A stretch of DNA of 64,000 bases from the IMG/VR virus record IMGVR_UViG_3300035232_000745; one strand, given 5' to 3'. This document shows, one piece after another, positions 1 through 16,184 of the stretch. The position numbers were made by a program, and so were the translations under genes. Every line of letters starts with the position of its first letter. Positions within the stretch are counted from its first letter, which is position 1. Origin of the DNA: a virus. The notes beneath the pieces were generated by a model, which was given only the letters and a program-made list of their open reading frames with translations, made no database searches and was not told where the DNA came from.

Positions 1-1
1 T

Positions 2-352
2 TATAATGATTATATGGCGAAAAAAGTTTACGGTATCGAATGGAATAAACCACGAGAACTACCCGAATGGGCTAAAGAAATTTTCTCTGATAATATGCTA
101 GCTGTTGGCAATATTAGAGATGGCGAAGAACTAGACCAGTTTATGGCCATAACAAAAGATTTGGTTGATCATTACTTAACTAATCTTAAAGACAGTGCGT
201 TTGTATCAAATCGTGATACAAAACCATTACTTAACAAATACTGCACAAATCAAAAGATGAACCCTCATCTTCATAGATCTATTTTAGCTATGGGTATTTC
301 AGAGGAAGGAAAAAACCAATACGTCGACGACGTTCTATTTGAGGTAATTTAA
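2..352 (+). CDS. pcyX: Ferredoxin-dependent bilin reductase (PcyX/PcyA-like), C-terminal part; truncated by window start
   Basis: Frame is open from position 2. RELPEWAKEIFS and NKYCTNQKMNPH match C-terminal motifs of the PcyA/PcyX family. Confidence 0.7.
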   Translation, partial: YNDYMAKKVYGIEWNKPRELPEWAKEIFSDNMLAVGNIRDGEELDQFMAITKDLVDHYLTNLKDSAFVSNRDTKPLLNKYCTNQKMNPHLHRSILAMGISEEGKNQYVDDVLFEVI

Positions 353-712
353 ATGGAAAAAGGGTTTACAATTAATGCATGTTGTAGTAGAGTAAACATA
401 ATATCTGAATCACAAACATTGACATTCGGCGAACACTTGTTCCTCGTGACTGTAGTTCATTGTTCTAATTGTGGTTCAATTAAAGCAACTACTAATATTA
501 AGGAACACAAAATGGCAGGCGATACTATAATAGTAGAAAAAGCAGGAAAAACACTTAAGGCTGAATATTTTACAACAACAGATGGTTGTGGATGCAGATT
601 TTTTATTAACGAAGAATTTATTCAAGAAGAATTATATCAAGGTAAATCTATTACATGGGCAGAAAGTGCTGCGAGTAATTGGTTGTCTGGGGTGAAAACA
701 TTAAATGGATAA
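353..712 (+). CDS. Hypothetical protein (true start may be the internal MAGDT)
   Basis: ORF packed between neighbours; no recognised motif. Confidence 0.5.
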   Translation: MEKGFTINACCSRVNIISESQTLTFGEHLFLVTVVHCSNCGSIKATTNIKEHKMAGDTIIVEKAGKTLKAEYFTTTDGCGCRFFINEEFIQEELYQGKSITWAESAASNWLSGVKTLNG

Positions 713-959
713 TAAGGAAAAGGTTATAAATCCAAGAACTCCAGAAAAAGTACACCACGATATATCATATATGTTACAAACTGGCGTTAACTATGTTGAT
801 GCTCTTGTTGAATATGCTCGTAAAAATGATTTAGAAATAGAGGCGGTTGCTGATATTGTTAAAAAGTCTTCGATCTTAAAAGAGAAAGTAAGAAACGAAG
901 CTGTTAAAATGAAAATGGTTATAAGAGAAGATGATAAAGACATCACAGAGCTTTGCTAA
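705..959 (+). CDS. 33: Late transcription co-activator gp33
   Basis: NYVDALVEY...IEAVA...LKEKV pattern; T4 synteny 33-59-32. Confidence 0.8.
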   Translation: MDNKEKVINPRTPEKVHHDISYMLQTGVNYVDALVEYARKNDLEIEAVADIVKKSSILKEKVRNEAVKMKMVIREDDKDITELC

Positions 960-1533
960 TGAAGAGTCGTTTAATTGTTACGTAAAGTATCTTGCTATGA
1001 AAAAGCATTTTACTACTGATCAATACGACTATCATAAGTACAGAGGAAAGATTAGAGCTTCATTCGATACGTATCGTACTCGTAATGATGTTTTCTTCTT
1101 CCATAAGCTTGCTCAAAAAGATGATCCAGAGAAATTACTAATGGCTAACATGATAGTTAAGCCTAATATATGGATAAGAGAAATTCTTGAGCAAGCAGGT
1201 GAAGATCGATATATTGACTGGTTGAAGAAGCGAGACTCGCTTACTCGCGTAGTTAAAGAAGATCTAACCAAATTAAGAGACGTATATCAGGATAATTTTG
1301 TTTCAGTTAATGGACAACATCCTGAGATATTACGTCTCTTTATACAAAGACAAATAACACTTGAAACTTTTACGATACTTACGCATTCCGCAAAGATATT
1401 TGATTATTGGGATGCAAATTTGGTTGACAAAATCGTGGCACGTGATATTATAAGACTATCTAAGAAGTATTATCCTTTCTTAGATATAGATCAAAAAAAG
1501 TTTAAAAAGGTTATCAAAGACTACTTCTTTTGA
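931..1533 (+). CDS. 59: Helicase loader gp59
   Basis: YLAMKKHF...YDYHKYRGK...RNDVFFFHKLA; synteny. Confidence 0.88.
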   Translation: MIKTSQSFANEESFNCYVKYLAMKKHFTTDQYDYHKYRGKIRASFDTYRTRNDVFFFHKLAQKDDPEKLLMANMIVKPNIWIREILEQAGEDRYIDWLKKRDSLTRVVKEDLTKLRDVYQDNFVSVNGQHPEILRLFIQRQITLETFTILTHSAKIFDYWDANLVDKIVARDIIRLSKKYYPFLDIDQKKFKKVIKDYFF

Positions 1534-1541
1534 TATAAATA
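1534..1541 (+). promoter_or_regulatory. T4-type late promoter TATAAATA upstream of gene 32
   Basis: Exact T4 late consensus in an intergenic position. Confidence 0.7.
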
Positions 1542-1617
1542 GATGGTGGACACATTCCACATATACATCGCAATATAAAACAAACGCTATACAACGCAAA
1601 ATTAGGAGAAATAAACC

Positions 1618-2544
1618 ATGACTATGGATTTCAACGCACTGAAAAAGAATCGTTCAACATCACTTAACAAGTTGAACTCACAGCTCGAAAAGATTACACA
1701 GAAGAGCTACTCAGACCCCAACGAAGGTAAAATTTGGAAGCCTACCCGCGATAAAGCTGGTAATGGCTTTGCTATTATTCGTTTCCTACCAGCAGCACAA
1801 GGTGAAGAGATGCCTTTTGTTCGTGTATGGGATCACGGTTTCCAAGGCCCAACAGGCTTATGGTATATCGAAAACTCACTTACAACTATTAACGTAGACG
1901 ATCCCGTTTCAGAGTATAACTCTAAACTATGGAATTCAGGTATTGAATCTGATAAAGAAATTGCTCGTAAGCAAAAGCGTCGTCTTAAGTATTTCGCAAA
2001 CGTTTTAGTTGTCAAAGACTCAGCAAATCCTGAAAACGACGGCAAAGTATTCATGTACCAGTTTGGTGCAAAGATCTTTGAAAAGTTGAACGATTTGATG
2101 AACCCACAGTTCGACGATGAAACAGCAATCAATCCGTTTGATTTCTGGGAAGGTGCTAACTTCCGTCTCAAGATTCAAAAAGTAGCTGGTTATCCCAACT
2201 ATGATAAATCAGACTTTGATAGCGTATCAGCAATTGCTGATGATGATTCAGAGATCGAACGTATTTGGAATCAACAGCACAAGTTGCAAGACATGGTTGA
2301 TCCAAAGAACTTTAAATCATATTCAGAATTGAAAGCAAAACTTTACAGAGTTCTTGCTCTTGATGAAGAAGCTTCGACACCTTCTACAGCTGAAGAAGAT
2401 GATGATTTAGATCTAAGCAGCTTCGGTAATAAGTCGGCCCCAGAACCTACTTTAAAAGAAGCTATGCCAGCTCAAGCGGCAAGTGTACCTATGGACGATG
2501 ATGACGACGACCTCTCAATTTTTAAGGAACTAGCGAATGGTTAG
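1618..2544 (+). CDS. 32: Single-stranded DNA-binding protein gp32
   Basis: DKAGNGFAIIRFLPA, WYIENSLTT, FDFWEGANFRLK and an acidic C-terminal tail. Confidence 0.97.
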   Translation: MTMDFNALKKNRSTSLNKLNSQLEKITQKSYSDPNEGKIWKPTRDKAGNGFAIIRFLPAAQGEEMPFVRVWDHGFQGPTGLWYIENSLTTINVDDPVSEYNSKLWNSGIESDKEIARKQKRRLKYFANVLVVKDSANPENDGKVFMYQFGAKIFEKLNDLMNPQFDDETAINPFDFWEGANFRLKIQKVAGYPNYDKSDFDSVSAIADDDSEIERIWNQQHKLQDMVDPKNFKSYSELKAKLYRVLALDEEASTPSTAEEDDDLDLSSFGNKSAPEPTLKEAMPAQAASVPMDDDDDDLSIFKELANG

Positions 2545-2863
2545 TAAAACCTACGAAGAGGTTTTAGATTTTGACTTCGGCTTCAGCTTCATTGATGAAG
2601 AGCTTCAGGAAAAAGAAGCTGCGGCCGAGGAAAAAATTCAAGAAGTCAGTAACGAAAAACAATCACTTGAGGACCAACTCAATGATGCTAAAGTAGCTGC
2701 TGACGACTTTGAATATCGTCTAGAACTTCTATATAAATCAATTACTCCGTTCTTAGATAATCTTTGTAAGAACGAAGAAAAATCAACAATTTATTGGCCT
2801 GATCGAGTAAGTAAGATCGAGGCCTATAAGACTAAATTATATAGTATTGTAGAGGGAAAATAA
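2537..2863 (+). CDS. Conserved T4-like hypothetical coiled-coil protein
   Basis: DFDFGFSF...PFLDNL...IYWPDR; coupled to neighbours. Confidence 0.6.
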   Translation: MVSKTYEEVLDFDFGFSFIDEELQEKEAAAEEKIQEVSNEKQSLEDQLNDAKVAADDFEYRLELLYKSITPFLDNLCKNEEKSTIYWPDRVSKIEAYKTKLYSIVEGK

Positions 2864-2864
2864 T

Positions 2865-3938
2865 ATGAGTCTATTAGACAAACTAGTGAAAAACAGCACG
2901 ATTAAAATGACGGCTCCTCTTATGGACTCTAAAGTTTACGGCAAAAAAGACATGGCACCTACACAGGTTCCAATGGTAAATGTCGCGTTATCAGGTAGAA
3001 TTGATGGCGGTGTTGTTCCAGGCTTGCTAGTATTAGCAGGTCCTTCTAAGCACTTTAAATCAGCATTCGCATTGTTGATGGCTGGTGCTTATATGAAAGC
3101 AAATCCAGATGCTGTACTATTATTTTATGATGCAGAATTTGGTACACCTCAAGCTTACTTCGAATCTTTCGATATTGATATGGATCGTGTAGTACATACT
3201 CCAATTACAAATGTTGAAGAACTTAAGTTTGATATCTCTCATCAGCTTGATCAAGTTGAAAAGGGTGAACAAGTTATCGTTGTTATTGACTCTGTTGGTA
3301 ACTTAGCTTCTAAGAAAGAAGTAGATGACGCACTTGATGGTAAGTCAGTTGCAGATATGTCTCGAGCAAAAGCTCTTAAGTCTTTGTTTCGAATTGTTAC
3401 GCCGCATCTTAATCTTAAAGATATTCCGCTCATTGCTGTTAACCACACATACAAAGAGATCGGTCTATATCCTAAAGATATTATTTCTGGCGGTACAGGC
3501 ATTTATTATTCAGCAGATGCTATTTGGATTATCGGTCGCCAACAAGATAAAGTTGGTACAGAAATTCAAGGCTATCACTTCGTTATTAATATCGAAAAAT
3601 CAAGACACGTTAAGGAAAAATCTAAGATTCCAATCTCAGTGTCATGGGATGGTGGTATTATGAAATGGTCGGGTCTAATGGATGTGGCTGAAAAAGGTGG
3701 CTATCTTAACAAGCCTAAAGTTGGATGGTATGAAGCTATTAATCCTGAAACTGGTGAAGTCATATCTGAAAAGCTTATGCGTGCCAAAGAAGTTAACGAT
3801 AATAAAGAGTTTTGGCTAAAAATGTTTGAAGAAACTAATTTTGCTTCTTACATCAAGAGTCACTTTACAATCGGAGCTGGTGGTTCGATCATGAGAAACG
3901 ATGACGACGAAGTTATTGAAGAGACCTCAGTCGAATAA
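2865..3938 (+). CDS. uvsX: UvsX RecA-like recombinase
   Basis: AGPSKHFKS Walker A variant, YDAEFG, DSVGNLASKKE, DMSRAK. Confidence 0.97.
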   Translation: MSLLDKLVKNSTIKMTAPLMDSKVYGKKDMAPTQVPMVNVALSGRIDGGVVPGLLVLAGPSKHFKSAFALLMAGAYMKANPDAVLLFYDAEFGTPQAYFESFDIDMDRVVHTPITNVEELKFDISHQLDQVEKGEQVIVVIDSVGNLASKKEVDDALDGKSVADMSRAKALKSLFRIVTPHLNLKDIPLIAVNHTYKEIGLYPKDIISGGTGIYYSADAIWIIGRQQDKVGTEIQGYHFVINIEKSRHVKEKSKIPISVSWDGGIMKWSGLMDVAEKGGYLNKPKVGWYEAINPETGEVISEKLMRAKEVNDNKEFWLKMFEETNFASYIKSHFTIGAGGSIMRNDDDEVIEETSVE

Positions 3939-3940
3939 GG

Positions 3941-3969
3941 TTGACATTTTCAACTTAATGTTTTACTAT
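3941..3969 (+). promoter_or_regulatory. Sigma70-type promoter TTGACA-N17-TACTAT upstream of gene 41
   Basis: Canonical -35, 17-bp spacer and TAnnnT -10. Confidence 0.6.
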
Positions 3970-3973
3970 AAAT

Positions 3974-4004
3974 TTGTGGCGGGTAATTATGTTGCTCGCC
4001 ACAA
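3974..4004 (+). terminator. 13-bp stem-loop between uvsX and gene 41 (terminator or leader structure)
   Basis: ttgtggcgggtaa / ttgctcgccacaa inverted repeat; no strong U-tract. Confidence 0.5.
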
Positions 4005-4031
4005 TTCAACTTAGAATTCTGGGAATATATA

Positions 4032-5462
4032 ATGATCGAAGCAACAGTACTATCTAATCTGATATTTAATGAAGACTACTTTAGAAAAGTATATCCTTAT
4101 ATTAAAACAGATTACTTTGAAGACCACAATCTTCAAAAGATATTCAACACTTACTCCGAGTATGTAGATGAATATCGTGATCCTCCATCAATAGAGGTTC
4201 TAAAATTACAACTTGATAAAAAGAAAGATATGAACGAGGATACGTATAAAAACGTAATGTCCTCTGTAGATACACTAAAAGTTGATGAGAAAACAGACTT
4301 TGATTGGCTAGTTAAAGAAACTGAGAAGTTTTGCCAAGATAGAGATCTATACAATGCAATCCGTAAAGCAATCTTAGTTGTTGATGGATCAGAAACTGAA
4401 TTAAGTAAAGACGGTTTACCAGCGCTACTTCAGGACTCATTAGGTATAAGCTTTGATACAAGTGTAGGCCATGATTTTCTTGAAGACTATGAAGCACGTT
4501 ATGACTTCTATCACAAGAAAGAAGAGCGTATTCCTTTTGATATAGATATTATGAATAAGATTACGAAGGGTGGTTTGCCTCGTAAATCAATGACAGTTCT
4601 TTTGGCTACAACTGGTGGCGGTAAATCTTTAGTTAAATGCCATGCCGCAGCAGCAGCTTTACTTCATGGTAAAAACGTATTATATATTACTATGGAAATG
4701 GCTGAAGAACGTATTTCAGAACGCATAGATGCTAATATGCTTAATGTTACTATTGATGAAGTAGCTGAAATGCCACGCGATGTATACTACAAACGTATGG
4801 AACGCATCAAAGGCAAATCAACTGGCAAGTTAGTTGTTAAAGAATTCCCAACAGGTTCTGCACACGTAGGTCACTTTCGTCATCTCTTAACAGAGCTACG
4901 AATGAAACGTAACTTCAAACCAGATATTATTATGATTGATTATCTAAACATATGTGCATCAGCTCGTGTCAAAGGTGCTGCTGCAGCTAATTCATATACA
5001 TTAGTTAAGTCAATTGCAGAGGAGGTACGTGGTCTTGCGATGGAATACAATTGTGCTGTTATTACTTCGTCTCAATTTAATCGTGACGGGTACGGGAATA
5101 CTGACGTTGATCTTACTAATACTTCTGAAAGTATGGGAATAACACATACTGCTGATTGCATATTAGGTCTAATTACAACAGAAGAATTAGATAATCTAGG
5201 CCAGCTTATGATTAAACAATTAAAGAATAGATGGGGTGATTTAAGTTACTATCGTAGATTTGTTGTAGGTATTGATAGAGCTAAGATGCAACTATACGAT
5301 CTTGAAGATGGAGCACAAAATTTAAGTCAAGCTCCAGCAGTTGCTAATACAATGCCAAGACCTTCCGTTTCTTTTAGTGATGATAATGGTCCAGTATTTG
5401 ATAAAGGTCCACTTGGCAGAGTTGATAAGAAATCATTGTTCGGTGCAGGAGGGATTTCATGA
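4032..5462 (+). CDS. 41: Replicative DnaB-like helicase gp41
   Basis: ATTGGGKS, YITMEMAEE, IMIDYLNIC, SQFNRDG, KQLKNRWGD. Confidence 0.97.
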   Translation: MIEATVLSNLIFNEDYFRKVYPYIKTDYFEDHNLQKIFNTYSEYVDEYRDPPSIEVLKLQLDKKKDMNEDTYKNVMSSVDTLKVDEKTDFDWLVKETEKFCQDRDLYNAIRKAILVVDGSETELSKDGLPALLQDSLGISFDTSVGHDFLEDYEARYDFYHKKEERIPFDIDIMNKITKGGLPRKSMTVLLATTGGGKSLVKCHAAAAALLHGKNVLYITMEMAEERISERIDANMLNVTIDEVAEMPRDVYYKRMERIKGKSTGKLVVKEFPTGSAHVGHFRHLLTELRMKRNFKPDIIMIDYLNICASARVKGAAAANSYTLVKSIAEEVRGLAMEYNCAVITSSQFNRDGYGNTDVDLTNTSESMGITHTADCILGLITTEELDNLGQLMIKQLKNRWGDLSYYRRFVVGIDRAKMQLYDLEDGAQNLSQAPAVANTMPRPSVSFSDDNGPVFDKGPLGRVDKKSLFGAGGIS

Positions 5463-5653
5463 GTTACGTAGTGTTTACTTCATTGAAGAATAAAAAGAAA
5501 TACGATATCGTAGAAACAAAATGGAATACAAGAATTGAATTAAGAATTGCTAAGAACGAAGCAAACAAGTTAGCTCGTAGACTTAATCTTGGTAATGGGT
5601 TTGGTTCTGGTCCTGTACCAGCTTTCTTCTGCATAAAAACATCAAACGCGTGA
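5459..5653 (+). CDS. Hypothetical protein
   Basis: ATGA overlap with the gene 41 stop. Confidence 0.55.
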   Translation: MSYVVFTSLKNKKKYDIVETKWNTRIELRIAKNEANKLARRLNLGNGFGSGPVPAFFCIKTSNA

Positions 5654-5840
5654 TGAAAAAGATAGTTCTTGTAAGAAATCGCATGTTGCTTTCTGCTTTG
5701 TTGAAAGCGTTAATTCGTTATATGAACTATCAAGAAAAAACTAAAAAATATATTAACCCTAAATCTCAATGGTCCGGGGTTAATAATACAGAAGAAACTC
5801 TTATGCTTCAAGTTAAGAGAGTTTTAGAAAGACGATTGGG

Positions 5841-6212
5841 TTAAGACGTGTAACCACTTTCTTTAGTGAGTTTCATAATGACGTGGAATGGTCCGTCGCC
5901 AATGATGCGTATGTCTCTATCTGCATATACGTTGTCTACGAAACCTGTATATTCATGAGAACCAGAGTTAACAAAATAATAATGTCCGTGAGCAGTTGCG
6001 CCATCCCACCTAGATACATCTACGTGTTTGTTGACTTTACAACCCCAAAATATTTCTTTAATTGTAACAGAAGCTGTACCCGAATCAAAAGTTTCGCCAG
6101 CAGCGGCAAGGTCTGATAGTGCAACATCAACAGTATCGCCAGATGAGTCTGTTACGTATACTTTGATTACTGCTTCGTTCTGTGATCTTTTTAAATAATG
6201 AATACTAGACAT
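5841..6212 (-). CDS. Hypothetical late protein (start MSSIHYL)
   Basis: GAGG RBS and a - strand TATAAATA at 6233-6240 precede ATG 6212. Confidence 0.7.
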   Translation of the reverse strand: MSSIHYLKRSQNEAVIKVYVTDSSGDTVDVALSDLAAAGETFDSGTASVTIKEIFWGCKVNKHVDVSRWDGATAHGHYYFVNSGSHEYTGFVDNVYADRDIRIIGDGPFHVIMKLTKESGYTS

Positions 6213-6232
6213 TGCAACCTCTTTTTTTATTT

Positions 6233-6240
6233 TATTTATA
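6233..6240 (-). promoter_or_regulatory. T4-type late promoter
   Basis: TATTTATA on + equals TATAAATA on -. Confidence 0.65.
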
Positions 6241-6367
6241 AAATGACAAACTGTCACATTTTCACTTGGTGCATAACCGCAATGCCAAATAGGGCATGCT
6301 AATTTACCAATTTCCTTAATAAATAAAATTGTAAAACAGTTTAACACTTATTAGGAAAGGTACCAGA

Positions 6368-6643
6368 ATGGCACACACACTAAATAACGAATCATCTGCA
6401 GCATCAGTATTTGCATACAAAGTTGTAGTCTTCTTCGAAAAATTCGGCGCAGCAATGGCTAAGCGTAGAGAAGCACGAGCAACATTCAAAACCCTCCAAG
6501 GATTAACAGATCGCGAACTTAGCGACATTGGTATCAGTCGTGGAGACATTCGCTCGATCGCAAACGACACATGGGAAGATAATCGTAAACGCGATACTTT
6601 ACCATATGCATCAACTAACTCTAACTTAAAAGGTTTTGTATAA
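6368..6643 (+). CDS. DUF1127 (YjiS-like) small Arg-rich protein
   Basis: KRREARATFKTLQGLTDRELSDIGISRGDI is the DUF1127 signature. Confidence 0.9.
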   Translation: MAHTLNNESSAASVFAYKVVVFFEKFGAAMAKRREARATFKTLQGLTDRELSDIGISRGDIRSIANDTWEDNRKRDTLPYASTNSNLKGFV

Positions 6644-6831
6644 TGGAAATCGCAGGTGAACAACCAGTAAGAATGCCAAAATTTTTTAGATTATTAGCAA
6701 AAGGCTTAGTTGCTCTTGGAATGTTCTTATGGGCATTTGGTGAGTCAGCAGGTAGAGCAAGAGCTGCAAGTGAATTATATCGTCAAGGATATGTAGAAGA
6801 AGCAAGAAGATTAATGTTGGAGAGTAAATAA
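6643..6831 (+). CDS. Small hypothetical protein with one hydrophobic segment
   Basis: TAATG coupling on both sides; [17 protein letters not shown]. Confidence 0.65.
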
Positions 6832-7052
6832 TGACTGGTGATATAGCAACAATGGGCGCATTAATTGGCGCAGGGTTAGCAACATTTGGTATGGGTGGCG
6901 CAGCCATCGCAGTAGGAATGATTGTTGGTAGTGTACTTAAAGTAATGCCTAAGAAGCCGGATACTGGTACAATGTTTGTAGGAGTCGCATTTGCAGAAGC
7001 ATTAGGAATCTTTGCATTCTTAGTAGCATTATTATTAATGTTTGCGATCTAA
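6831..7052 (+). CDS. atpE: F0 ATP synthase subunit c homolog with altered polar loop
   Basis: IGAGLA...[10 protein letters not shown] helix 1 and [25 protein letters not shown] helix 2, with the proton-binding Glu. Confidence 0.93.
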
Positions 7053-7273
7053 TGGTTGGTGAACAACACCTCGAGATCTCAGCGCAAGTAGTACAGAAAT
7101 TAGGTTTCTATATGTTTGTGGTAATGACATCTCTAATATTAATATGCATAGCATTTGGGTTTTATGCAGTGATTACTAAGTTTAAAGAACCCACATGGAA
7201 AGAAGCGTGTATCGCACAAGGCGGTGTACCAGTACAGTTAGAAAAATCATACTTCGACTGTAAGAAGCTGTAA
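7052..7273 (+). CDS. Single-pass membrane protein with C-terminal Cys pair
   Basis: Hydrophobic stretch; ACIAQGGVP...FDCK. Confidence 0.6.
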   Translation: MVGEQHLEISAQVVQKLGFYMFVVMTSLILICIAFGFYAVITKFKEPTWKEACIAQGGVPVQLEKSYFDCKKL

Positions 7274-7288
7274 CAAAGAGGAAACGTA

Positions 7289-7423
7289 ATGTTTAAACGA
7301 TTTATGAAATTAATGGAATATAGAAGTTACTGCATGAGTATTAAGCAGTTGAGAGAAATGGGTATGTATGATAAAGCTGATGAAATCTCAGAATTCAAAC
7401 ACAACATGTATAAAACAAGTTAG
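7289..7423 (+). CDS. 44-aa hypothetical protein (not in ORF track)
   Basis: GAGG RBS; MFKRFMKLMEYRSYCMSIKQLREMG...; fills the gap in the operon. Confidence 0.55.
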   Translation: MFKRFMKLMEYRSYCMSIKQLREMGMYDKADEISEFKHNMYKTS

Positions 7424-7431
7424 GATATAAT

Positions 7432-7860
7432 ATGAAAACACTTTATTTTTATTTAGCAGTCTTCGCCGCAGTATTTACAGTGAGCGCAGCAAACGCAGAC
7501 GTAACAATCGAAATGTTAAACAAGCGCGACGATGGCGCTAAGATGGTTTACTCACAAGATATTACACGTATCGAAGTGGGTGAGATTATCACATGGATAC
7601 CAACATCAAAAGGTCATAACGTAGAATTTATTGCAGGACCAGACGGATGGAAGTTGCCTAAGAAATCAAAATTAAATAAAGTAGTTGAGATGCAGTTCAA
7701 TACACCTGGTGTATATTTGTATCAATGTTCACCACATAAAACAATGGGCATGATTGCTATTGTCGTTGTAGGTGATGGCGGAGATGGTTTATCTGTTCCA
7801 GGTAAAAAGATTAAAGGCAAGTCAAAGAAAAGACTTAAAGAAATAATGGCTGACCTATGA
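7432..7860 (+). CDS. paz: Pseudoazurin (type-1 blue copper protein), secreted
   Basis: Signal peptide, MLNK..., GHNVEF, and YQCSPH...GM supplying the His/Cys/His/Met Cu ligands. Confidence 0.9.
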   Translation: MKTLYFYLAVFAAVFTVSAANADVTIEMLNKRDDGAKMVYSQDITRIEVGEIITWIPTSKGHNVEFIAGPDGWKLPKKSKLNKVVEMQFNTPGVYLYQCSPHKTMGMIAIVVVGDGGDGLSVPGKKIKGKSKKRLKEIMADL

Positions 7861-7935
7861 TCGATCCAGACCACACTTACGTAAAGCCTAAAGGTGAGAA
7901 GAAAAAAGGCGGAAAGTAATAACTTTATAAATCCG

Positions 7936-7943
7936 TATAAATA
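7936..7943 (+). promoter_or_regulatory. T4-type late promoter for glycosylation cluster 1
   Basis: TATAAATA. Confidence 0.65.
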
Positions 7944-7975
7944 AAGGGTAGGCATTAAGTTGTCTACCTTTTTTT
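7943..7975 (+). terminator. Intrinsic terminator of the DUF1127-atpE-paz operon
   Basis: aaagggtaggca / tgtctacctttt stem followed by a T-run. Confidence 0.75.
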
Positions 7976-7994
7976 GATTCAACGGAGAAATATT

Positions 7995-8558
7995 ATGGGA
8001 AGAATACGTGATAGAGGTAATGATGGCGGTAATGTTTATAGGTGGCAAACATTAGCAAGATTCGTAAATACTAACGGTTGGAGAAGAGGCGCAGAACTAG
8101 GAGTTCACGATGGCGTTAACTACAAATATTTAATTAATAATTGTCCGAATTTACATTTAATCGGTGTAGATTTATACGAGCCACAACCAGAAAATAATGG
8201 TCCAGAAAAGTGGACTCCAGGCGAACATGGTCATGCTTGGAATCATAACGCATATTATGACGATATGAGAGAATTTTCAATAAAACACCCAGATAGAACT
8301 GATATAATTAAAGACTATACCACAGAAGCTGCTAAGACGGTTTATGATGGTTCATTAGATTTTGTATTCATCGATGCTGATCATGGATATGAAGGTTGTT
8401 TGCGTGATATTAAAGCGTGGGATAGTAAAGTACGAGAAGGTGGTATTGTATTTGGACATGATATTCATTTCCCTACTGTACAAAAAGCAGTTACAGAATT
8501 TTACGGTGAAAACTCTTGGAACGTTGAAGATGATTTTATTTGGTGGGTGCAAAAGTGA
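7995..8558 (+). CDS. Class I SAM-dependent methyltransferase (Methyltransf_24-like)
   Basis: GAELGVHDG, DFVFIDADHGYE, GGIVFGHD. Confidence 0.85.
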   Translation: MGRIRDRGNDGGNVYRWQTLARFVNTNGWRRGAELGVHDGVNYKYLINNCPNLHLIGVDLYEPQPENNGPEKWTPGEHGHAWNHNAYYDDMREFSIKHPDRTDIIKDYTTEAAKTVYDGSLDFVFIDADHGYEGCLRDIKAWDSKVREGGIVFGHDIHFPTVQKAVTEFYGENSWNVEDDFIWWVQK

Positions 8559-9205
8559 ATATTGAAAAGAAGCTGACACAGATTTGGATAGGACCTAAGC
8601 CTGCTCCGCTTACATGGATGCACACTTGGAGAGATAAACATCCTGACTGGGAATATTCTATATTTGATGATAGTATGCTTCATAATCGTAAATGGCATAA
8701 CCAACATTTAATTGATCGTTACTATGCAATGCAAAAGTGGCCAGGAGTATCAGACTTAATAAGATATGAATTGTTATATGAAAGAGGTGGCTTTTGGCCA
8801 GAAGCTGATATGACTTGCTTAGAAAATACTGATGAGTTGTTTACTTCACCAAAAGATCATGCTTATTCTTGTTATGAAAATGAAAAAGGAAGACAAAACT
8901 TTATTCAACCTATTATGGCATGTAATCCAGGTAATGCTTTCGTAAAACATGTCATAGATACATTACATATATTAACACCAAACGAATTAAGCCCAGAACC
9001 TTTTAGATCAACTGGAAATCTATTCTTAGCTCGTCATGTTCCGCATTGGATGCATCAACTTACAGTATGGCCCAGTCATTACTTCATTCCTTTGTTTTAC
9101 ATTGGCGGAGCTAAAAGATATGATGGACCTGATAAGGTTTATGCCGATCATAAATGGGGATCAACCGGCCATGCAAATAGTATAACATATGATAAGGGTT
9201 TATAA
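8555..9205 (+). CDS. Glycosyltransferase, GT32/OCH1-like (DXD sugar-binding)
   Basis: QIWIGP...HPDWEY...SDLIRYELLYERGGFWPEAD. Confidence 0.8.
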   Translation: MNIEKKLTQIWIGPKPAPLTWMHTWRDKHPDWEYSIFDDSMLHNRKWHNQHLIDRYYAMQKWPGVSDLIRYELLYERGGFWPEADMTCLENTDELFTSPKDHAYSCYENEKGRQNFIQPIMACNPGNAFVKHVIDTLHILTPNELSPEPFRSTGNLFLARHVPHWMHQLTVWPSHYFIPLFYIGGAKRYDGPDKVYADHKWGSTGHANSITYDKGL

Positions 9206-9876
9206 TGTACATATCTCACAAATATAAATTGATATTTTTAAGATCTCCGAAAACCGCTAGTAGCAGCTTATCAGAGTTTTTTATTAAAAACATTCCCGAT
9301 CCTGATGCTATATACACGCCAGTAGAAGATAGTAATATAAAAGGAACATTGAGTCAGGATATTATTAATAGATATAAAACTCATTTCAAATTTTATCATT
9401 TTACTTTGCAAGATATAATTGATAATAATATTATTACGAAAGAACAGGCATTATCATATCGTTCTATTTGTGTTATAAGAGATCCAGTCGATAGACAAAA
9501 AAGTTTTTACTACTTTTATAAAAAATGGAAACAACCTGGTTCTCAAGCGAGCATTGAACAATACAACGATTGGACATCAAACGGTCCTTTTATAGGTGAA
9601 CCTAACTCTGGTATATTACAATCATCTTTTTTAAAAATCGATAACAAAATTGTAGGAGAGTATTGGTTGTATCAAAACTTTCATAATGATTTAAGTCAAT
9701 TAATGCGAGAATTAGACTTATCGGTAACACATATGTTACCACAGCATAAGACAGACTTTAGAAAAAACAGAGATAACGAAATAAAGTTTAACGAGTTTGC
9801 CACTGATAATTTAAACAAATTCTTTGGTTCAGATGTTAAGTTGTATAATGAATTATTAGAAGAGACTTATGTATGA
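9205..9876 (+). CDS. Sulfotransferase family-2-like protein
   Basis: IFLRSPKTASSS (5'-PSB loop) and IRDPVDRQKSFY (3'-PB motif). Confidence 0.75.
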   Translation: MYISHKYKLIFLRSPKTASSSLSEFFIKNIPDPDAIYTPVEDSNIKGTLSQDIINRYKTHFKFYHFTLQDIIDNNIITKEQALSYRSICVIRDPVDRQKSFYYFYKKWKQPGSQASIEQYNDWTSNGPFIGEPNSGILQSSFLKIDNKIVGEYWLYQNFHNDLSQLMRELDLSVTHMLPQHKTDFRKNRDNEIKFNEFATDNLNKFFGSDVKLYNELLEETYV

Positions 9877-10556
9877 AAGCTTACATATTAAAGATTGATA
9901 CTCAAACATCGAATGAATATGCTAAAGTTTGTTCTGATAGCTGCAACAATATAGGACTTGATTGGGAGTATTTTAACGGGTTTCAAAACATGTCTGGAAA
10001 GATGGCTTTTAATACTTTAAATATCCCTGGTTTACCTGTAGAAACATACAGTCACATCGATAACCCTTCTACTGGCCATAAAGCTATGTGTGCTACAGCT
10101 GGTCATTTTGCGATATGGCAGAAAATTGCTAAGTCTGACCACGATGTAGGTATAGTTTTAGAACATGACGCAGTTATGTTACAACCAGTAACTATACAAA
10201 TACCAGAAAATACTATCGTTGTTCTTGGTTACAAAGTTAAAGATAAAGATAGATACGATCACAAATCTGCTGGTGTTCCTAATGATTTAATAAGAATTGA
10301 CGGGCACGAAGGAGCTCACGCTTATGCAATAACTAAAAGAACTGCTAAGTTCTTGCTCAATGAATTGAGCATACAAGGTGTTCATAGCGCAATAGATAAT
10401 GATTATTTTATTAGAAGACAGCGCAGAACTGCAATGCCTTTAACTATAGCATCACCTACACCAGCTATAGGATGGTTAAGGGAATCTACCATATGGCAAG
10501 AAAGTTCTCATACTAATTATGAATTTATACCCTCTTTTCATAAATATTATAAATAG
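9873..10556 (+). CDS. Glycosyltransferase, GT25-like
   Basis: CATAGHFAIWQK...IVLEHDAV...GAHAYAIT. Confidence 0.75.
   Translation: MKAYILKIDTQTSNEYAKVCSDSCNNIGLDWEYFNGFQNMSGKMAFNTLNIPGLPVETYSHIDNPSTGHKAMCATAGHFAIWQKIAKSDHDVGIVLEHDAVMLQPVTIQIPENTIVVLGYKVKDKDRYDHKSAGVPNDLIRIDGHEGAHAYAITKRTAKFLLNELSIQGVHSAIDNDYFIRRQRRTAMPLTIASPTPAIGWLRESTIWQESSHTNYEFIPSFHKYYK
10548..10555 (+). promoter_or_regulatory. T4-type late promoter for the internal-protein cluster
   Basis: TATAAATA about 33 nt before ATG 10588. Confidence 0.7.
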
Positions 10557-10587
10557 AAATAAATCTCAATACAATAGGATTGCTCTC

Positions 10588-12696
10588 ATGGCTGATGATA
10601 AAGACGTTAAAACAGATGAAAAATCTAAAAAGAAAAATTCTAAGAATTTTGACAGTTCAAAATATATAGATGTAGAACCTACATTGGATGAAAAAGAAGA
10701 GACTAACGAGGCTCTTTTAACCAGAATGCAAAGACGTGCACGCGGTATTACAATGCGTAAAAATCGTTTTAAGATTAAAAGAGGTAGAGAAAAAGCTGCC
10801 CGCAGAATGGCATCAGTCGAAATACTTAAAAAGAGAGCACGTAAACAAGCTATACGCAATTTAAAAGCCAAATTCGCTAAAAATAAAAGATATGCTGAAA
10901 TGAGCGCTGGTGAAAAGATAGTCATCGATAAAAGAATTTCTAAGTTACCAGCATCTAGATTGAATGCTATGGCTCGTAAGTTATTGCCAAGTGTCAAAAC
11001 TGCTGAACGCGCAAGAAAAACACATGCTAAGAAAGAGTCTGTTTCTTTATCAAGCATGGTAGATAATAATTTAAATGAAGCAACAATGTGGGGTCAAAGA
11101 CAAGGCAAGCGTCCTCATATGCTTCTTGATAAAGATAACAAACCAAAATTCGATAAACGTTTTAGAATGTATAAACCTAAAATGGAAGAAAGTGTTGATG
11201 ATTTTGATGAGATCCTCAATTTATTAGAAACAACAGAAGATTACGTTAGTAGCGAACAAGGACGAGAAGATATGCAAAGCTTTAAAGAAAACACAAGGCT
11301 AAAGTTAATTAATAAAATTAAAAACTCAGGCGTAGTTAAGTCAGGTTCCATGTCAAAAGACGCACCAGTTAAAAAGGAAAAAGAAGAGATCAAAGAGCTA
11401 TCGATTGCTGACGTTCAAAAGGCCACAGCGATGGCAAAGAAACGACAAGAAAAGGAACGTAATGCTAAAGGAAAAACCAGTGTATCGACGACTGATCTTG
11501 CAGCACGTATGCCTAAGAAAGAAGCAGCTGATTTAGCAGATCTCGCAAACGAAAAGATTAAAGATAAAAAAGAAATTGGTGAAATACCAAAAGACAGCGA
11601 AAGAAAATTTAAGCGTCGTAAAACCGTAGTTGATAAAGAAATAGAAAAAAATGACGTGGAAGAAGCAGCAACTCAAAGATCTTTGTTAAACATTGTTGCT
11701 AAAAACGAAGCATTTGGTCGTGCAAGATTTTCTCAAGAACTAAAAAGAAAAGGAATGGATGTAAATAAAATGCATTCCGACAATGTTAAAGATGCAGAAG
11801 CTGCAAAGAAAAGATCGGCAGAAGCTGAAAAAGATTTAGCTGATTTCAGAAAAAAGCACGGAATGAAAGAGTCAACAAACGGTGTACGTCAACCAAAGCA
11901 TATGGACCCTAAGCCAACAAGCATTAAATCTATTACTACAACCAAAAGAAATCCTACTAAAGTTAAACCAAAACCGGCTGCAAACAACCGGCCAGGATAT
12001 GTTGCTGGAGATGAGTACATTGGTGAAGCACAACTTGACGAGTTATCGCCTGAAACAATGATGAGCTATAAAAAGAAAGCTGATTACAGTGCAGATCGTG
12101 CAGCAAACTCTGCAGCTGCTAAAATTCTTAGAGGTAAAGATAAAGACGGCAATAGAGCTGATCATTCTCCTGAACTTAAGACTATGAAAAAACGCAGAGA
12201 AGGCGACAGACTGTATAATACAAGAGCTGCCGATAAGTTAAGAAAGGCTTTACAAAAAGAAGCTACTATTCCTGATGGACAAACTGCTTTTACAAAAAGA
12301 CCAGATGTGACAGATAGCGATAAAGATAAACTTCTTAAGATTAAAGCAATGATGGATAAAGAACGCTCAAAGAAAAATACGAATGAGAAATATGCTTCAG
12401 ATGCTCAACGTAAAGCAGTATGGGCATCGAGAAATGATAAGAAAAATGAAGCCCAGGTAGACGAGATGGATATTTCTGTTAAGTCTATTACTAAGTCAGG
12501 ACTTAGAAAAGTTGGTGATGAACCTAAACTAAAGGCTGATTTAAAAGCTTTAAGAGATAGACTTAATAAAGATAAGGGTGACGGATACGGCTCAAATAAA
12601 TCATTAAAAGCTAATTACGGCGAAGAAGCTGGTGCAGGAGAACAAGGTACTGATAAATTAGTTAATAGATTTAAAAAGGACACTCCCAATGCTTAG
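10588..12696 (+). CDS. Large K/E/R-rich putative internal head (poly)protein
   Basis: Late promoter; low complexity; many x-x-E-A/S/L motifs and an LDELSPE module shared with 15535. Confidence 0.6.
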   Translation: MADDKDVKTDEKSKKKNSKNFDSSKYIDVEPTLDEKEETNEALLTRMQRRARGITMRKNRFKIKRGREKAARRMASVEILKKRARKQAIRNLKAKFAKNKRYAEMSAGEKIVIDKRISKLPASRLNAMARKLLPSVKTAERARKTHAKKESVSLSSMVDNNLNEATMWGQRQGKRPHMLLDKDNKPKFDKRFRMYKPKMEESVDDFDEILNLLETTEDYVSSEQGREDMQSFKENTRLKLINKIKNSGVVKSGSMSKDAPVKKEKEEIKELSIADVQKATAMAKKRQEKERNAKGKTSVSTTDLAARMPKKEAADLADLANEKIKDKKEIGEIPKDSERKFKRRKTVVDKEIEKNDVEEAATQRSLLNIVAKNEAFGRARFSQELKRKGMDVNKMHSDNVKDAEAAKKRSAEAEKDLADFRKKHGMKESTNGVRQPKHMDPKPTSIKSITTTKRNPTKVKPKPAANNRPGYVAGDEYIGEAQLDELSPETMMSYKKKADYSADRAANSAAAKILRGKDKDGNRADHSPELKTMKKRREGDRLYNTRAADKLRKALQKEATIPDGQTAFTKRPDVTDSDKDKLLKIKAMMDKERSKKNTNEKYASDAQRKAVWASRNDKKNEAQVDEMDISVKSITKSGLRKVGDEPKLKADLKALRDRLNKDKGDGYGSNKSLKANYGEEAGAGEQGTDKLVNRFKKDTPNA

Positions 12697-13186
12697 TTTT
12701 AAACAATTTGTTATTGAAGCAAGAGATACTCATTGCTCAGATAAATGTTGTGGTTCCGACGTTAAAAGAGAAGATTGCGATTGCCCACCAACTTGTGAGC
12801 ATTGTAATTGCAACGCAGTTGACGAAGCTTGTTGGGATACTCATAAACAAGTAGGAATGAAGAAAAAAGGCGATAAGATGGTACCAGATTGTGTACCTAA
12901 AGAAGATGTAGATGAAGGTATTGTTGGATCAGCTTTATCAGGCGTATTTAAAGGCGCTGCTAAAACAGTTGTAGGTGGAACACGCCTAGCCGGTAAGGGT
13001 ATCAGAAGAGCATCTGTAGCAGGGAGAGCAGACGCAGCTGAGAAAAAAGCTAAAAAAGCCGAACAAAAGAATAAAGATCGTGAAAGACTTACTAAGATGA
13101 AAGCAAGATACGATGCTGCAAAAGCTAAAGCAAGAGAAAGAGCTAATGCACCGGTAAAGCCAACTAAATCAGGAGCTACTTCATGA
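12689..13186 (+). CDS. Putative internal head protein (CTS-like N-terminus; Cys-rich segment)
   Basis: MLSFKQFVIE; CW...GMKKKGDKMVPDCVP module. Confidence 0.6.
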   Translation: MLSFKQFVIEARDTHCSDKCCGSDVKREDCDCPPTCEHCNCNAVDEACWDTHKQVGMKKKGDKMVPDCVPKEDVDEGIVGSALSGVFKGAAKTVVGGTRLAGKGIRRASVAGRADAAEKKAKKAEQKNKDRERLTKMKARYDAAKAKARERANAPVKPTKSGATS

Positions 13187-13413
13187 AAAAGTTTAAGTCA
13201 TTCTTAGAAGCAAAAGACCAAAATCCTGGTGAATACGATCAAGAAGGAAGCATGGCTAAGACATCTTTGCGCACTATGATAGATGCTGCAACTGAATTGT
13301 CTAATATGCTAGGCGATGATGATAATCTACCAGAATGGGTTCAAGGCAAAATTACTAAGGCCACTGATTATATTGATACCGCAAGAGATTATATGAAGTC
13401 AGAAAAGAGTTAA
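13183..13413 (+). CDS. Putative internal head protein
   Basis: MKKFKSFLE; EGSMAK...LPEWVQGKITKA. Confidence 0.6.
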   Translation: MKKFKSFLEAKDQNPGEYDQEGSMAKTSLRTMIDAATELSNMLGDDDNLPEWVQGKITKATDYIDTARDYMKSEKS

Positions 13414-13416
13414 TAA

Positions 13417-13797
13417 ATGTTAAGATTTAAGCTTTTTTGCGAAAGAGTAACTCAGAGACAGATTACTGATTTAGAAAAATTTGGTGATAAACTGCTTAAT
13501 AAGTACAATATCGATATCGAGTTTTCTAGACATTTCGCAGATAGGATGAATGATCCAAGAAACAAACCAGAGATTAAGATAGCAGAGCTTCAGAAACTGT
13601 TTAAAAAGATTGCTAAGAGAAAAGGCAAATCAATTAAACAGTTAGGGCCTGATGTGCAAGCTGTTTTAAAAGATATTGATACAGATTTAAATTTGCCTAT
13701 TGTTATTCATTATAACAAAGGTGAATTTGAGATTACGCATAAAACTATTATGCGCAAAAAGAATTTTAGAACCCCAAACGACGTGGTGAAAGTATGA
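13417..13797 (+). CDS. Putative internal protein, possible RelE/RegB-like RNase fold
   Basis: MLRFKLFCE; IEFSRHFADR...KTIMRK. Confidence 0.45.
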   Translation: MLRFKLFCERVTQRQITDLEKFGDKLLNKYNIDIEFSRHFADRMNDPRNKPEIKIAELQKLFKKIAKRKGKSIKQLGPDVQAVLKDIDTDLNLPIVIHYNKGEFEITHKTIMRKKNFRTPNDVVKV

Positions 13798-14252
13798 AAA
13801 GATTTATTCAGTTTACAGAAAACGCTAGTTACTATAAAGGCATTCCTAAAAAACAAAAAGATGACAGAGAACGTCATTTTGAAAAAGGCGCAAAGATGGA
13901 TGATGGTAATCCAGCTGCTTATAAACCTGCTCCAGGAGATAAAGATGCTAAGACTAAAGAGTCAAAGCATACAAAGAAAGCACGCGCAATGGGTTTTACA
14001 AACGAAGAGTTTGATTTCTTAGGAGAAGACGCTGCAGGTAAATCTTTAGCAGATAAAGCAAAAAAATCGGGTATGGCCGCAGGTATTTTGCGTAAAGTAT
14101 ATAATAGAGGTGTTGCGGCATGGCGTACTGGACATAAACCTGGCACAACTCCACAACAATGGGGTCATGCTAGGGTAAATTCTTTCATTACAAAGTCTTC
14201 TGGTACTTGGGGAGGAGCTGATAAAGACTTAGCTTCTAAGGTAAAAAAATGA
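13794..14252 (+). CDS. Putative internal protein (basic, DUF5824-like)
   Basis: MKRFIQFTE; LRKVYNRGVAAWRTGH...QQWGHARVNSF. Confidence 0.6.
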   Translation: MKRFIQFTENASYYKGIPKKQKDDRERHFEKGAKMDDGNPAAYKPAPGDKDAKTKESKHTKKARAMGFTNEEFDFLGEDAAGKSLADKAKKSGMAAGILRKVYNRGVAAWRTGHKPGTTPQQWGHARVNSFITKSSGTWGGADKDLASKVKK

Positions 14253-15154
14253 TAACTTTTAAACAATATATAGCAGAACAAGAAGATAAGGCTACACCTG
14301 GCTTTGATAAAGATAAAGATGGAAACGTTTTTGTTGCTCATGATACTTCATTCGACAGGAAAAAAGAAAAAGAAAAGAAAAAAGATACTAACGAATCTAT
14401 AATAAAAAAAGTTAAAAAAGCTTTTGGCGTTAAAGCAGATCATGAAAAATCTTTAGCTGATCACGCTGCGAGTCATAATAAAACAGATCACAGTGAACAT
14501 CTATCAAACCATTCTTCTCGCGCACATGATGACAATCATGAGAGTGAAGCTTTCGGTCATTTTAAACGTAACTCTTCAGAAATGAATGAGCATTTAATAA
14601 GTCAGCATAAAAAAGGATTAAGTCCTGATCATCACAAAGGCTACAGTAAAAAAGCTGCTCACGAGCACAAAATACATAAAATGGACCATTCGCATTGGGA
14701 TGACCACAGTGAATTTCCTGATCGTCACGAGCAAAAACATATTCGCAATAGCGAAGCCCATGTGCATCACACAATCCATAAACATTCTAAACCTCTTGGT
14801 AAAAAAATAACTTTGTATCACGGTTCACATCACGACTTTGGTGCAGCAGCTGCAAAACATCCAAAAGGTATAATTCACAACCCAGCTCATATGTCTACAT
14901 CACATGATCATAAATCAGCAAAAGAATTTGGAAGCGGACATATTCTTGCAATTCACGCCGATAAGAAAACTAAAGCCGTTCATATAGACGGCGAAGGCGC
15001 ACGCCAACAGTCCAACCATCCTGAAAAAGAAACAGTTCTTCCAGCTGGAACTAAATTAAAACATGTTAAATCACATAAAACATCCGACGGCTATACAGTA
15101 CACCACTTTAAAGTCCATAGTCAACACGATAATGGCAAGCATTACGATCACTAG
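14249..15154 (+). CDS. His-rich ADP-ribosyltransferase-like putative internal protein
   Basis: MITFKQYIAE; ITLYHG, MSTS, EKETVLPAGTK resemble the R-STS-ExE ART motifs. Confidence 0.65.
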   Translation: MITFKQYIAEQEDKATPGFDKDKDGNVFVAHDTSFDRKKEKEKKKDTNESIIKKVKKAFGVKADHEKSLADHAASHNKTDHSEHLSNHSSRAHDDNHESEAFGHFKRNSSEMNEHLISQHKKGLSPDHHKGYSKKAAHEHKIHKMDHSHWDDHSEFPDRHEQKHIRNSEAHVHHTIHKHSKPLGKKITLYHGSHHDFGAAAAKHPKGIIHNPAHMSTSHDHKSAKEFGSGHILAIHADKKTKAVHIDGEGARQQSNHPEKETVLPAGTKLKHVKSHKTSDGYTVHHFKVHSQHDNGKHYDH

Positions 15155-15165
15155 AGAGATATTAG

Positions 15166-15489
15166 ATGAAAACTTTTAAAACATATATTAGTGAATTATA
15201 TACTGAAGAAAAAGATCCACGTTTAAAGAACGCTGGTGTAGCCGGTTTTAATAAAGCCAAAGGTACTCCTTCTCATCCTACTAAAAGTCATATTGTTGTT
15301 GCTAAAGATGGTGACAAAGTTAAAACAATTCGATTTGGTCAGCAAGGTGCAAGTACAGCTGGTGATCCTAAAAAGGGTGAGTCTGATAAAATGAAAGCAA
15401 AACGTAAGTCGTTTAAGGCTCGCCACGGTAAAAACATCGCTAAGGGGAAAATGTCAGCCGCATATTGGGCTGATAAGGTCAAATGGTAA
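15166..15489 (+). CDS. Putative internal protein (conserved basic phage family)
   Basis: MKTFKTYISE; KTIRFGQQG...RKSFKARH...AAYWA. Confidence 0.65.
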   Translation: MKTFKTYISELYTEEKDPRLKNAGVAGFNKAKGTPSHPTKSHIVVAKDGDKVKTIRFGQQGASTAGDPKKGESDKMKAKRKSFKARHGKNIAKGKMSAAYWADKVKW

Positions 15490-15495
15490 TTTTTT

Positions 15496-15503
15496 TATAA
15501 ATA
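15496..15503 (+). promoter_or_regulatory. T4-type late promoter
   Basis: TATAAATA, intergenic. Confidence 0.7.
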
Positions 15504-15534
15504 CTATCAGTAAACATACAAAAAGGAAATCAAA

Positions 15535-15852
15535 ATGAAACGGTTTAGTACATTCATTAACGAATTAGAAGAAAGTAAAAAGAAACTTTCTGGTGGACAA
15601 AAGGCGTTAGATAAAGATAACGATGGAGACATTGACGGTGACGATTTTGCTATGATGCGTAAAAAGAAAAACGAAGAAACAGATCAGCTTGATGAATTAT
15701 CGCCTGAAAAGTTAGGAACTTATATTAATAAAGCTTCTGATGATGCTTCTGATTTCCAGAATACGTCTAAGCGTAAAAAAGGTATTATGAGAGCTACTAA
15801 GAAATTAGTTACGAAAGCTGGTGGCGATAAAGACCAGGTCACAAACTATTAA
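15535..15852 (+). CDS. Putative internal protein with EF-hand-like DxDxDG loop
   Basis: MKRFSTFINE; LDKDNDGDIDGDDF; LDELSPE. Confidence 0.6.
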   Translation: MKRFSTFINELEESKKKLSGGQKALDKDNDGDIDGDDFAMMRKKKNEETDQLDELSPEKLGTYINKASDDASDFQNTSKRKKGIMRATKKLVTKAGGDKDQVTNY

Positions 15853-15876
15853 TTAACCCAAACTAGGAGAACAACA

Positions 15877-16179: not shown

Positions 16180-16184
16180 ACAAA

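Follow-up and report, generated by a model that had tools for sequence, protein, structure and literature searches.

A modular gene island of a T4-like phage encodes a paralogue of the ATP synthase c subunit and a pseudoazurin

The R-(N/Q)-P loop of subunit c of the F-type ATP synthase contacts the gamma and epsilon subunits, and its mutation uncouples F1 from Fo. Small proteins that regulate the synthase are known, namely the zeta subunit of Alphaproteobacteria, AtpTheta of cyanobacteria and IF1. That phages carry auxiliary genes for electron transport in photosynthesis is textbook knowledge. Among the small bacterial proteins with a DUF1127 domain, CcaF1 of Rhodobacter binds RNA and the SDPs of Agrobacterium bind the PhoR kinase (PMC11707872, PMC12648545), while YjiS of Salmonella is associated with the inner membrane (PMC11707872). 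Here we describe a row of small genes in a 64,000-nucleotide stretch of viral DNA (IMG/VR record IMGVR_UViG_3300035232_000745; the whole stretch is called the window, and all positions refer to it) that brings together a DUF1127 gene, a gene for a c subunit paralogue and a pseudoazurin gene. The row is best described as a modular island in which an anchor of two genes is followed by swappable cargo, and not as one indivisible operon.

The window has a guanine plus cytosine (GC) content of about 35% and is a segment of a T4-like myophage; the best named relatives of its gp41-type helicase (4032-5462) are just 50-54% identical. The row consists of seven head-to-tail open reading frames (ORFs) on the plus strand (6368-7919), labelled in order g1, g2, c* (the third gene), g4, g5, g6 (pseudoazurin) and orf20 (Table 1), and with its terminator it ends at 7972. 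Stop and start codons overlap as TAATG at the g1/g2, g2/c* and c*/g4 junctions. The spacers between g4 and g5 and between g5 and g6 are 15 and 8 nt respectively, and the start of orf20 overlaps the pseudoazurin stop as ATGA. This tight spacing together with the single terminator suggests that the row is co-transcribed here. All seven ORFs are real coding sequences under purifying selection, with median ratios of nonsynonymous to synonymous substitution (dN/dS) against relatives of 0.20 (g1), 0.33 (g2), 0.07 (c*), 0.06 (g4), 0.05 (g5), 0.13 (g6) and 0.05 (orf20). The layout reported in the first-pass annotation of this DNA, six genes with three TAATG overlaps and one terminator, is thereby confirmed, with the addition of the seventh conserved ORF, orf20, that had been missed. 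The calls of a DUF1127 protein, an ATP synthase c subunit and a copper carrier also hold (Pfam DUF1127, E = 1.1e-12; ATP-synt_C, 1.6e-12; Copper-bind, 1.7e-13), as does the presence of all four blue-copper ligands. Of three proteins that had been called small membrane proteins, g4 clearly is one, whereas g2 and g5 are mostly soluble and helical.

The product of c* is a two-transmembrane hairpin that matches PF00137 over residues 12-69 with 47.9 bits (cut-off 24); against the AtpE equivalog model of NCBIfam (NF005733) it scores 61.3 bits, below the cut-off of 85. Its nearest cellular relatives are the c subunits of named Paracoccaceae, with 62-68% identity, and together with the low dN/dS this is what characterizes a host-derived auxiliary gene. 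Identity to the c subunit of the metagenome-assembled genome (MAG) Water_Bin34, the nearest of the genomes compared with the window, is 63%, and the gap in that alignment falls in the loop. Both helices are kept, and the proton-binding Glu56 of helix 2 is among the invariant columns (27 in alignment A1 and 30 in A4), all of which lie inside the two helices. The cytoplasmic loop has by contrast lost R-N-P and five residues of its length. A search of IMG/VR with a c* profile found 77 viral contigs, and 75 loci were analysed; the R-(N/Q)-P loop is missing from all 75 viral copies and is kept in cellular relatives. Among the 120 best database relatives the motif is missing in 81, and the loops form a graded series with many unrelated variants. 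Homologues of subunits a, b and b' and of AtpI were sought by tblastn with the proteins of the MAG as queries, and neither the window nor any of the loci retrieved contained one. From these comparisons we take c* to be a rotor subunit that came from a host and whose loop was rewritten.

The gene that follows, g4, encodes a protein with one strong transmembrane helix and, in most copies, a C-terminal tail with two cysteines. Its invariant residues (V14, G18, F22, M25, L28, C32, G36, F37 and V40; alignment A2) are 3-4 apart along the helix, and therefore all lie on one helix face. Relatives of g4 are found among environmental sequences only, and in 185,579 species genomes it occurs solely on two phage contigs of one MAG, Water_Bin34. 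Similarly, a search of 301 Rhodobacteraceae genomes found g2 only on phage contigs of Water_Bin34 and in none of the 300 others. Both partners of c* are therefore phage-only. An origin of g4 as a remnant of AtpI or of subunit b' was rejected, the hhalign probabilities being 3.8% and 0.2%. A predicted complex of three c* and g4 scored 0.00 with the fold of the partner uncertain, and so counts neither way.

The AlphaFold2 model of g2 has a long helix (13-47) and a short one (51-59), with a predicted local distance difference test score (pLDDT) of 79. The Ala/Arg-rich motif is conserved (alignment A3), and the protein is of borderline hydrophobicity in the window, its relatives being amphipathic. 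Its family accounts for 358 small-protein cluster representatives among 1.84 billion, and the genomic contexts of its distant relatives L181 and L182 gave no functional lead. We note that in an environmental protein of 87 amino acids, P0372, the end of a DUF1127 domain runs on in one frame into the start of g2, either as a natural fusion or through a frameshift in the gene call over the g1/g2 overlap. The DUF1127 domain of g1 itself spans residues 28-62 (PF06568, 47.9 bits against a gathering cut-off of 23.3). Nothing significant was found with Rfam near this gene, such as the small RNAs that accompany CcaF1. The invariant core of the soluble protein g5 is M-E-Y-R-S-Y-C-M (alignment A6). The motifs of g2 and g5 look alike by eye, and with an hhalign probability of only 23% over 23 columns their paralogy is not established. 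Searches of Pfam, PHROG and NCBIfam gave no family match for g2, g4 or g5. The short orf20 is found at 34 loci with 90-100% identity, and its dN is 0.03 compared with a dS of 0.83.

By sequence g6 is a pseudoazurin, and it is predicted to be a copper carrier. Residues 1-22 form a signal peptide, and residues 22-141 align with chain residues 1-122 of the solved pseudoazurins 3tu6 and 1bqk (E = 2e-22), including the C-terminal helices. The copper ligands are H62, C99, H102 and M107, with the spacing C-x2-H-x4-M. The score against TIGR02375, 91.4 bits, lies under the equivalog cut-off of 109.85; this is still by far the best cupredoxin model, with 42.6 bits for amicyanin and 29.7 for plastocyanin. 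The match to PHROG 515 (plastocyanin PetE) is weak (1e-5), and tblastn against 50,697 deposited phage records gave no match. Pseudoazurin is present above cut-off in 73 of 301 Rhodobacteraceae genomes, and this, with the dN/dS given above, agrees with an auxiliary gene.

The linkage of these genes was analysed in the viral relatives. In 74 of the 75 loci g4 lies directly after c*, the sole exception being cut by a contig end, and g1 is upstream of c* in 70. More sensitive queries placed g2 between g1 and c* in every architecture except two, and in uncut loci c*-g4 was never seen without g1. The gene g5 follows g4 in about 28 of the 75 loci and also on the contig L156, and the order g1-g2-c*-g4(-g5) is repeated on contigs of 114 and 328 kb. 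The cargo varies. Layouts with g1-g2 followed by pseudoazurin, with g1-g2-g5 followed by pseudoazurin, and with g1-g2-c*-g4 lacking pseudoazurin are all observed, and g1-g2 also occurs without cargo, as at L169 where a glycosyltransferase gene is directly next.

Pseudoazurin is found on 321 viral contigs. It adjoins the cassette in about 20 distinct architectures and stands away from it in 36 distinct loci, where it is often grouped with other small genes close to the gene for the major capsid protein. For most c* cassettes there is no pseudoazurin gene within 5 kb. Both genes are present on at least 14 contigs, at least six of which have them more than 5 kb apart (at least 20 kb in three). 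Wherever pseudoazurin is missing orf20 lies directly after g5, so that in the lineage of the window pseudoazurin sits between these two; in L094 and L034 it comes after orf20 instead. In the pseudoazurin tree, members of at least three well-separated clades have the gene directly after g5, and this layout needs at least three changes even when only well-supported branches are considered. The link between cassette and pseudoazurin is therefore recurrent or old rather than a one-off, and it is not obligatory. The clade of eight to which the pseudoazurin of the window belongs includes members without c*-g4, and the close relatives L003 and L005 have kept g1-g2-g5 and pseudoazurin while c*-g4 is missing. 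A lack of co-occurrence in relatives had been named beforehand as grounds for refuting the claim that the row is a dedicated module. The first four genes do co-occur, and for them the claim stands; the pseudoazurin is mostly elsewhere, and the row is not one fixed module of six genes. The anchor is thus g1-g2, and the swappable cargo comprises c*-g4, g5-orf20 and pseudoazurin.

Table 1. Features of the gene row and its surroundings (positions in the window unless a contig is named)
Feature	Position	Strand	Description
g0	5841-6213	-	conserved protein of ~120 amino acids; likely start near 6213, behind the minus-strand box; flanks island
TATAAATA	6233-6240	-	exact late-promoter box before g0
palindrome TGACA-N3-TGTCA(C)	6244-6257		~115 nt upstream of g1; candidate operator or RNA element
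AATAAATA	6318-6325	+	late-promoter-like box, relative of T4-type TATAAATA; 43 nt before g1 start
g1	6368-6643	+	DUF1127 protein (YjiS-like), 91 amino acids; conserved C-terminal tail N-L-K/R-G-W/F-V
g2	6643-6831	+	phage-only helical protein, 62 amino acids; conserved Ala/Arg-rich motif; always paired with g1
c*	6831-7052	+	paralogue of F-type ATP synthase c subunit, 73 amino acids; R-N/Q-P loop replaced, 5 residues shorter
g4	7052-7273	+	single-pass membrane protein, 73 amino acids; obligate partner gene of c*
g5	7289-7423	+	soluble basic protein, 44 amino acids; optional cassette member
g6	7432-7860	+	predicted secreted pseudoazurin (type-1 copper electron carrier); independently mobile auxiliary gene inside cassette
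orf20	7857-7919	+	basic micro-ORF of 20 codons, conserved
TATAAATA	7936-7943		exact late-promoter box before methyltransferase gene
intrinsic terminator	7943-7972	+	12-bp stem, 6-nt loop, T run; closes row
N-G-G-E-H-tail membrane protein	L059 5052-5423; L021 5091-5450; L139 5657-5953; L144 1859-2164		recurrent neighbour in other lineages
Hsp20/IbpA-like gene	L082 4085-4573; L101 1830-2300; L139 4133-4627; L144 404-946		upstream of g1 in other lineages

Two elements upstream of g1 are conserved. The palindrome TGACA-N3-TGTCA is found a single time in the window, 30 related loci each have one copy of it upstream of g1, and it is invariant in alignment A5 while its flanks vary. It was tried as a site of a host regulon and rejected, since a genome of the candidate host genus (G050) has two sites compared with one for the control. 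Capture of a host promoter, suggested by the palindrome before an apparent host DUF1127 gene at L169, was also rejected; this locus is phage DNA inside a MAG, with g1-g2 followed by a phage glycosyltransferase. Closer to g1, the TAAATA core of AATAAATA is invariant in nine relatives (alignment A5), and the box is a candidate promoter of the row. Exact boxes of the T4 type precede both neighbouring genes. There is no convincing sigma-70 promoter on the plus strand, where the number of sites is no higher than in shuffled sequence. Late expression of the row is thus plausible.

The TATAAATA box at 7936-7943 abuts the 5' arm of the row terminator, and the methyltransferase gene behind it likely starts at the ATG at 7996. 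A late transcript that starts a few bases downstream of the box would therefore miss part of the stem and could read through, while transcripts from upstream would stop. On the other side of the row the orientation of g0 relative to g1 varies, being plus in L003, L093 and L153 and minus in the window, L001 and L024, which places an inversion breakpoint at the left edge of the island. A small heat-shock gene resembling Hsp20/IbpA stands directly upstream of g1 in many lineages (identified by eye, and by its Pfam label on L156). In other lineages a membrane protein of about 100-120 amino acids with a C-terminal N-G-G-E-H tail stands beside pseudoazurin or the c* cassette, together with several genes for tiny membrane proteins, and is a candidate for another member of the accessory region. 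The contig L156 (ENA, 328,038 bp) carries g1-g2-c*-g4-g5 within 1-16237, near genes for IF3, ribosomal protein S21, Hsp20 and ClpS, and further neighbours are IMPDH, a class II tRNA synthetase, PEPCK and a purine permease. It is possibly a jumbo phage whose accessory genes are unusually like those of a cell.

The nearest of the genomes compared with the window is the MAG 'Rhodobacteraceae bacterium Water_Bin34' (G001), which shares 21% of the 31-mers of the window and has about 36% GC in the loci read, compared with the ~35% of the window. It holds a normal atpI-a-c-b'-b operon (36.5% GC at the locus), the c subunit of which has the R-N-P loop, and several phage contigs related to the window. 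We consider a low-GC member of the Rhodobacteraceae/Paracoccaceae the most likely host of the phage. Pseudoazurin is missing from G050, a clean genome of the same genus, and in Water_Bin34 it is found only on a phage contig. The classical partners of pseudoazurin are not seen in the candidate host genus, because NirK does not appear there above cut-off nor NirS in Water_Bin34. COX1 of the heme-copper oxidase is present in both genomes. We note that at least four, and probably more, of the contigs of Water_Bin34 are from T4-like phages (C78, C102, C116, C143, C160 and C173), with at least two genotypes (83x and 5.6x coverage in the contig names). The phage contigs in this MAG, a GTDB species representative, inflate its gene content and explain part of its 6% contamination.

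What might these proteins do in the infected cell? The helices of c* are almost those of the host subunit, the loop is lost in every copy and a phage-only one-helix protein is always alongside, and it is for these reasons that c* and g4 would most likely enter or imitate the rotor of the host Fo and so alter F1-Fo coupling or proton conductance. Such a subunit would retain the ability to take its place in a c-ring and to bind a proton, and would be unable to dock to the gamma/epsilon foot of F1. Since known proteins with DUF1127 bind RNA or kinases in some cases and are associated with the inner membrane in others, g1-g2 could regulate or target the cargo. The g6 protein would be exported to the periplasm, where it might give a host genus that has no pseudoazurin of its own an extra copper-based electron shuttle, with the path of electrons most likely running from the bc1 complex to a heme-copper oxidase, in parallel to the cyanophage plastocyanin gene. 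Pseudoazurin is most simply seen as an independent auxiliary gene. We therefore favour a composite reading, to which we give a probability of about 45%, of a modular membrane-energetics island in which c*-g4 alters the host Fo and pseudoazurin is an independent auxiliary gene. A number of points weigh against it. Contact between c* and g4 is hypothetical, and the host is assigned from sequence similarity and a metagenomic bin with 6% contamination. The late-type box, the candidate promoter of the row, is a consensus match in AT-rich DNA. To our knowledge transfer from pseudoazurin to a heme-copper oxidase is not an established route in Rhodobacterales, and the documented partners of pseudoazurin in Paracoccus are denitrification enzymes. 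Finally, the hyperplastic regions of phages gather unrelated small genes, so that adjacency alone is weak evidence of shared function.

This last point bears directly on whether the row might be one integrated module, in which pseudoazurin would increase the flow of electrons and c*, g4 and the small proteins would change the way in which the proton gradient is used, so that their adjacency would be selected rather than incidental. Pseudoazurin does lie beside the island anchored by g1-g2 in several layouts (after g2, after g5 and after orf20), its position after g5 recurs in well-separated clades, the two genes share at least 14 contigs and the row here has the look of a single transcript. 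The many pseudoazurin loci with no cassette gene nearby, the cassettes with no pseudoazurin, the contigs on which the two are far apart and the loss of c*-g4 alone from L003 and L005 make such a module improbable. A more ambitious proposal combines the two subjects in some lineages only. Here an F1-blind rotor subunit, an obligate one-helix partner and the regulators DUF1127, g2 and g5 would form a device, evolved in phages and carried by marine T4-like and jumbo phages alike, with which the proton turbine of the host Fo is seized or re-geared, in some lineages on one transcript with a periplasmic electron carrier supplied by the phage; we offer this tentatively, as a possibility on the unlikely side.

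The alternatives for c* turn on how its two parts are weighed. Phages commonly carry host-derived bottleneck genes, and c* could be an ordinary auxiliary metabolic gene that supplies the most abundant part of the host ATP synthase after host shut-off, the changes in the loop being tolerated drift. In the helices, the Gly-rich packing motif and the proton-binding Glu c* hardly differs from the host subunit, and dN/dS is low; moreover a hybrid ring might tolerate some subunits without the loop, so that c* could be a working spare part, which counts against the composite reading. Drift does not sit well with a loop missing from every phage copy examined, with many unrelated replacements, and kept in cellular relatives, nor does a replacement part with constant company from phage-only partners that cellular atp operons lack and a score below the equivalog cut-off. 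A simple spare part is thus unlikely, and with drift as the source of the loops we think it very improbable. The same loss of the F1-docking loop, with retention of the ring-forming and proton-binding parts, could also be taken to mean that c*-g4 forms an F1-free ring or pore, possibly with the host subunit a, that provides a regulated proton conductance for, e.g. lysis timing or superinfection exclusion, with g1, g2 and g5 as regulators. Conservation on one face of g4 is typical of helix-helix packing, the late-type boxes upstream of the row and before both neighbouring genes would fit such a role, and DUF1127 proteins can be associated with the inner membrane (PMC11707872). However, nothing links c*-g4 to lysis genes, the near-identity of helix 2 to that of the host suggests constraint by host partners rather than an autonomous pore, and leaking protons would be at odds with the investment of the same phage in an electron carrier. 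We consider an F1-free assembly doubtful, and retain the composite reading in which c*-g4 acts on the host Fo.

In the literature searched we found no paper on phage-encoded c subunits or other ATP synthase components, on phage pseudoazurins or on a system of this kind, in keeping with the earlier remark that the row was not recognised as a described phage system. No match to the region, to c* or to the pseudoazurin was found among deposited phage genomes by blastn and tblastn. The c* cassette is nevertheless present in dozens, and pseudoazurin in hundreds, of uncultured marine viral contigs, and the phages that carry them probably infect streamlined roseobacters, which have a major part in the cycling of carbon and sulfur in the ocean. 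We infer from the row that phages may influence the membrane energetics of their hosts by a route that has not been described. If c* and its partners do alter F1-Fo coupling or proton conductance, phages would manipulate the chemiosmotic machine itself and not just the pathways that feed it. The proteins would then be natural tools, tested by evolution, for probing c-ring assembly and the coupling of rotor and stalk, and would provide a concrete membrane-energetic context for DUF1127 proteins. Should the phage-evolved device exist, viruses would control chemiosmosis in abundant heterotrophs of the ocean through a class of mechanism not known before. The layout of an anchor with swappable cargo is also a route to further small energy-related phage genes.

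The closest known counterpart of c* is AtpE of the Rhodobacterales/Paracoccaceae, with which it shares the two-helix hairpin, the Gly-rich helix 1 and a helix 2 of the FAEALG type with the proton-binding Glu. AtpE has the R-N-P loop that is absent from c*, in which the loop is five residues shorter, and unlike cellular AtpE c* has no neighbouring genes for a, b and b'; instead DUF1127-g2 comes before it and a phage-only one-helix protein after. The zeta subunit, AtpTheta and IF1 provide a precedent for small proteins that tune F1Fo at low energy. These act on F1, whereas here the modified part would be the Fo rotor itself, and no sequence relationship to them was found. Like CcaF1, the SDPs and YjiS, g1 is small and has an Arg-rich DUF1127 domain; it differs from them in being phage-encoded and longer, in its conserved C-terminal tail and in its translational coupling to the phage-only g2. 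The pseudoazurins of denitrifying Alphaproteobacteria (TIGR02375; 3tu6, 1bqk and 1paz) resemble g6 over its full length, including the C-terminal helical extension, the four ligands and a Sec signal peptide, while g6 is set apart by being phage-encoded and by its score under the equivalog cut-off. Finally, the cyanophage plastocyanin PetE (PHROG 515) is, like g6, a small secreted type-1 copper carrier of a marine T4-like phage that is encoded among small accessory genes. By contrast g6 belongs to the pseudoazurin and not the plastocyanin subfamily, and the host of its phage would be a heterotroph.

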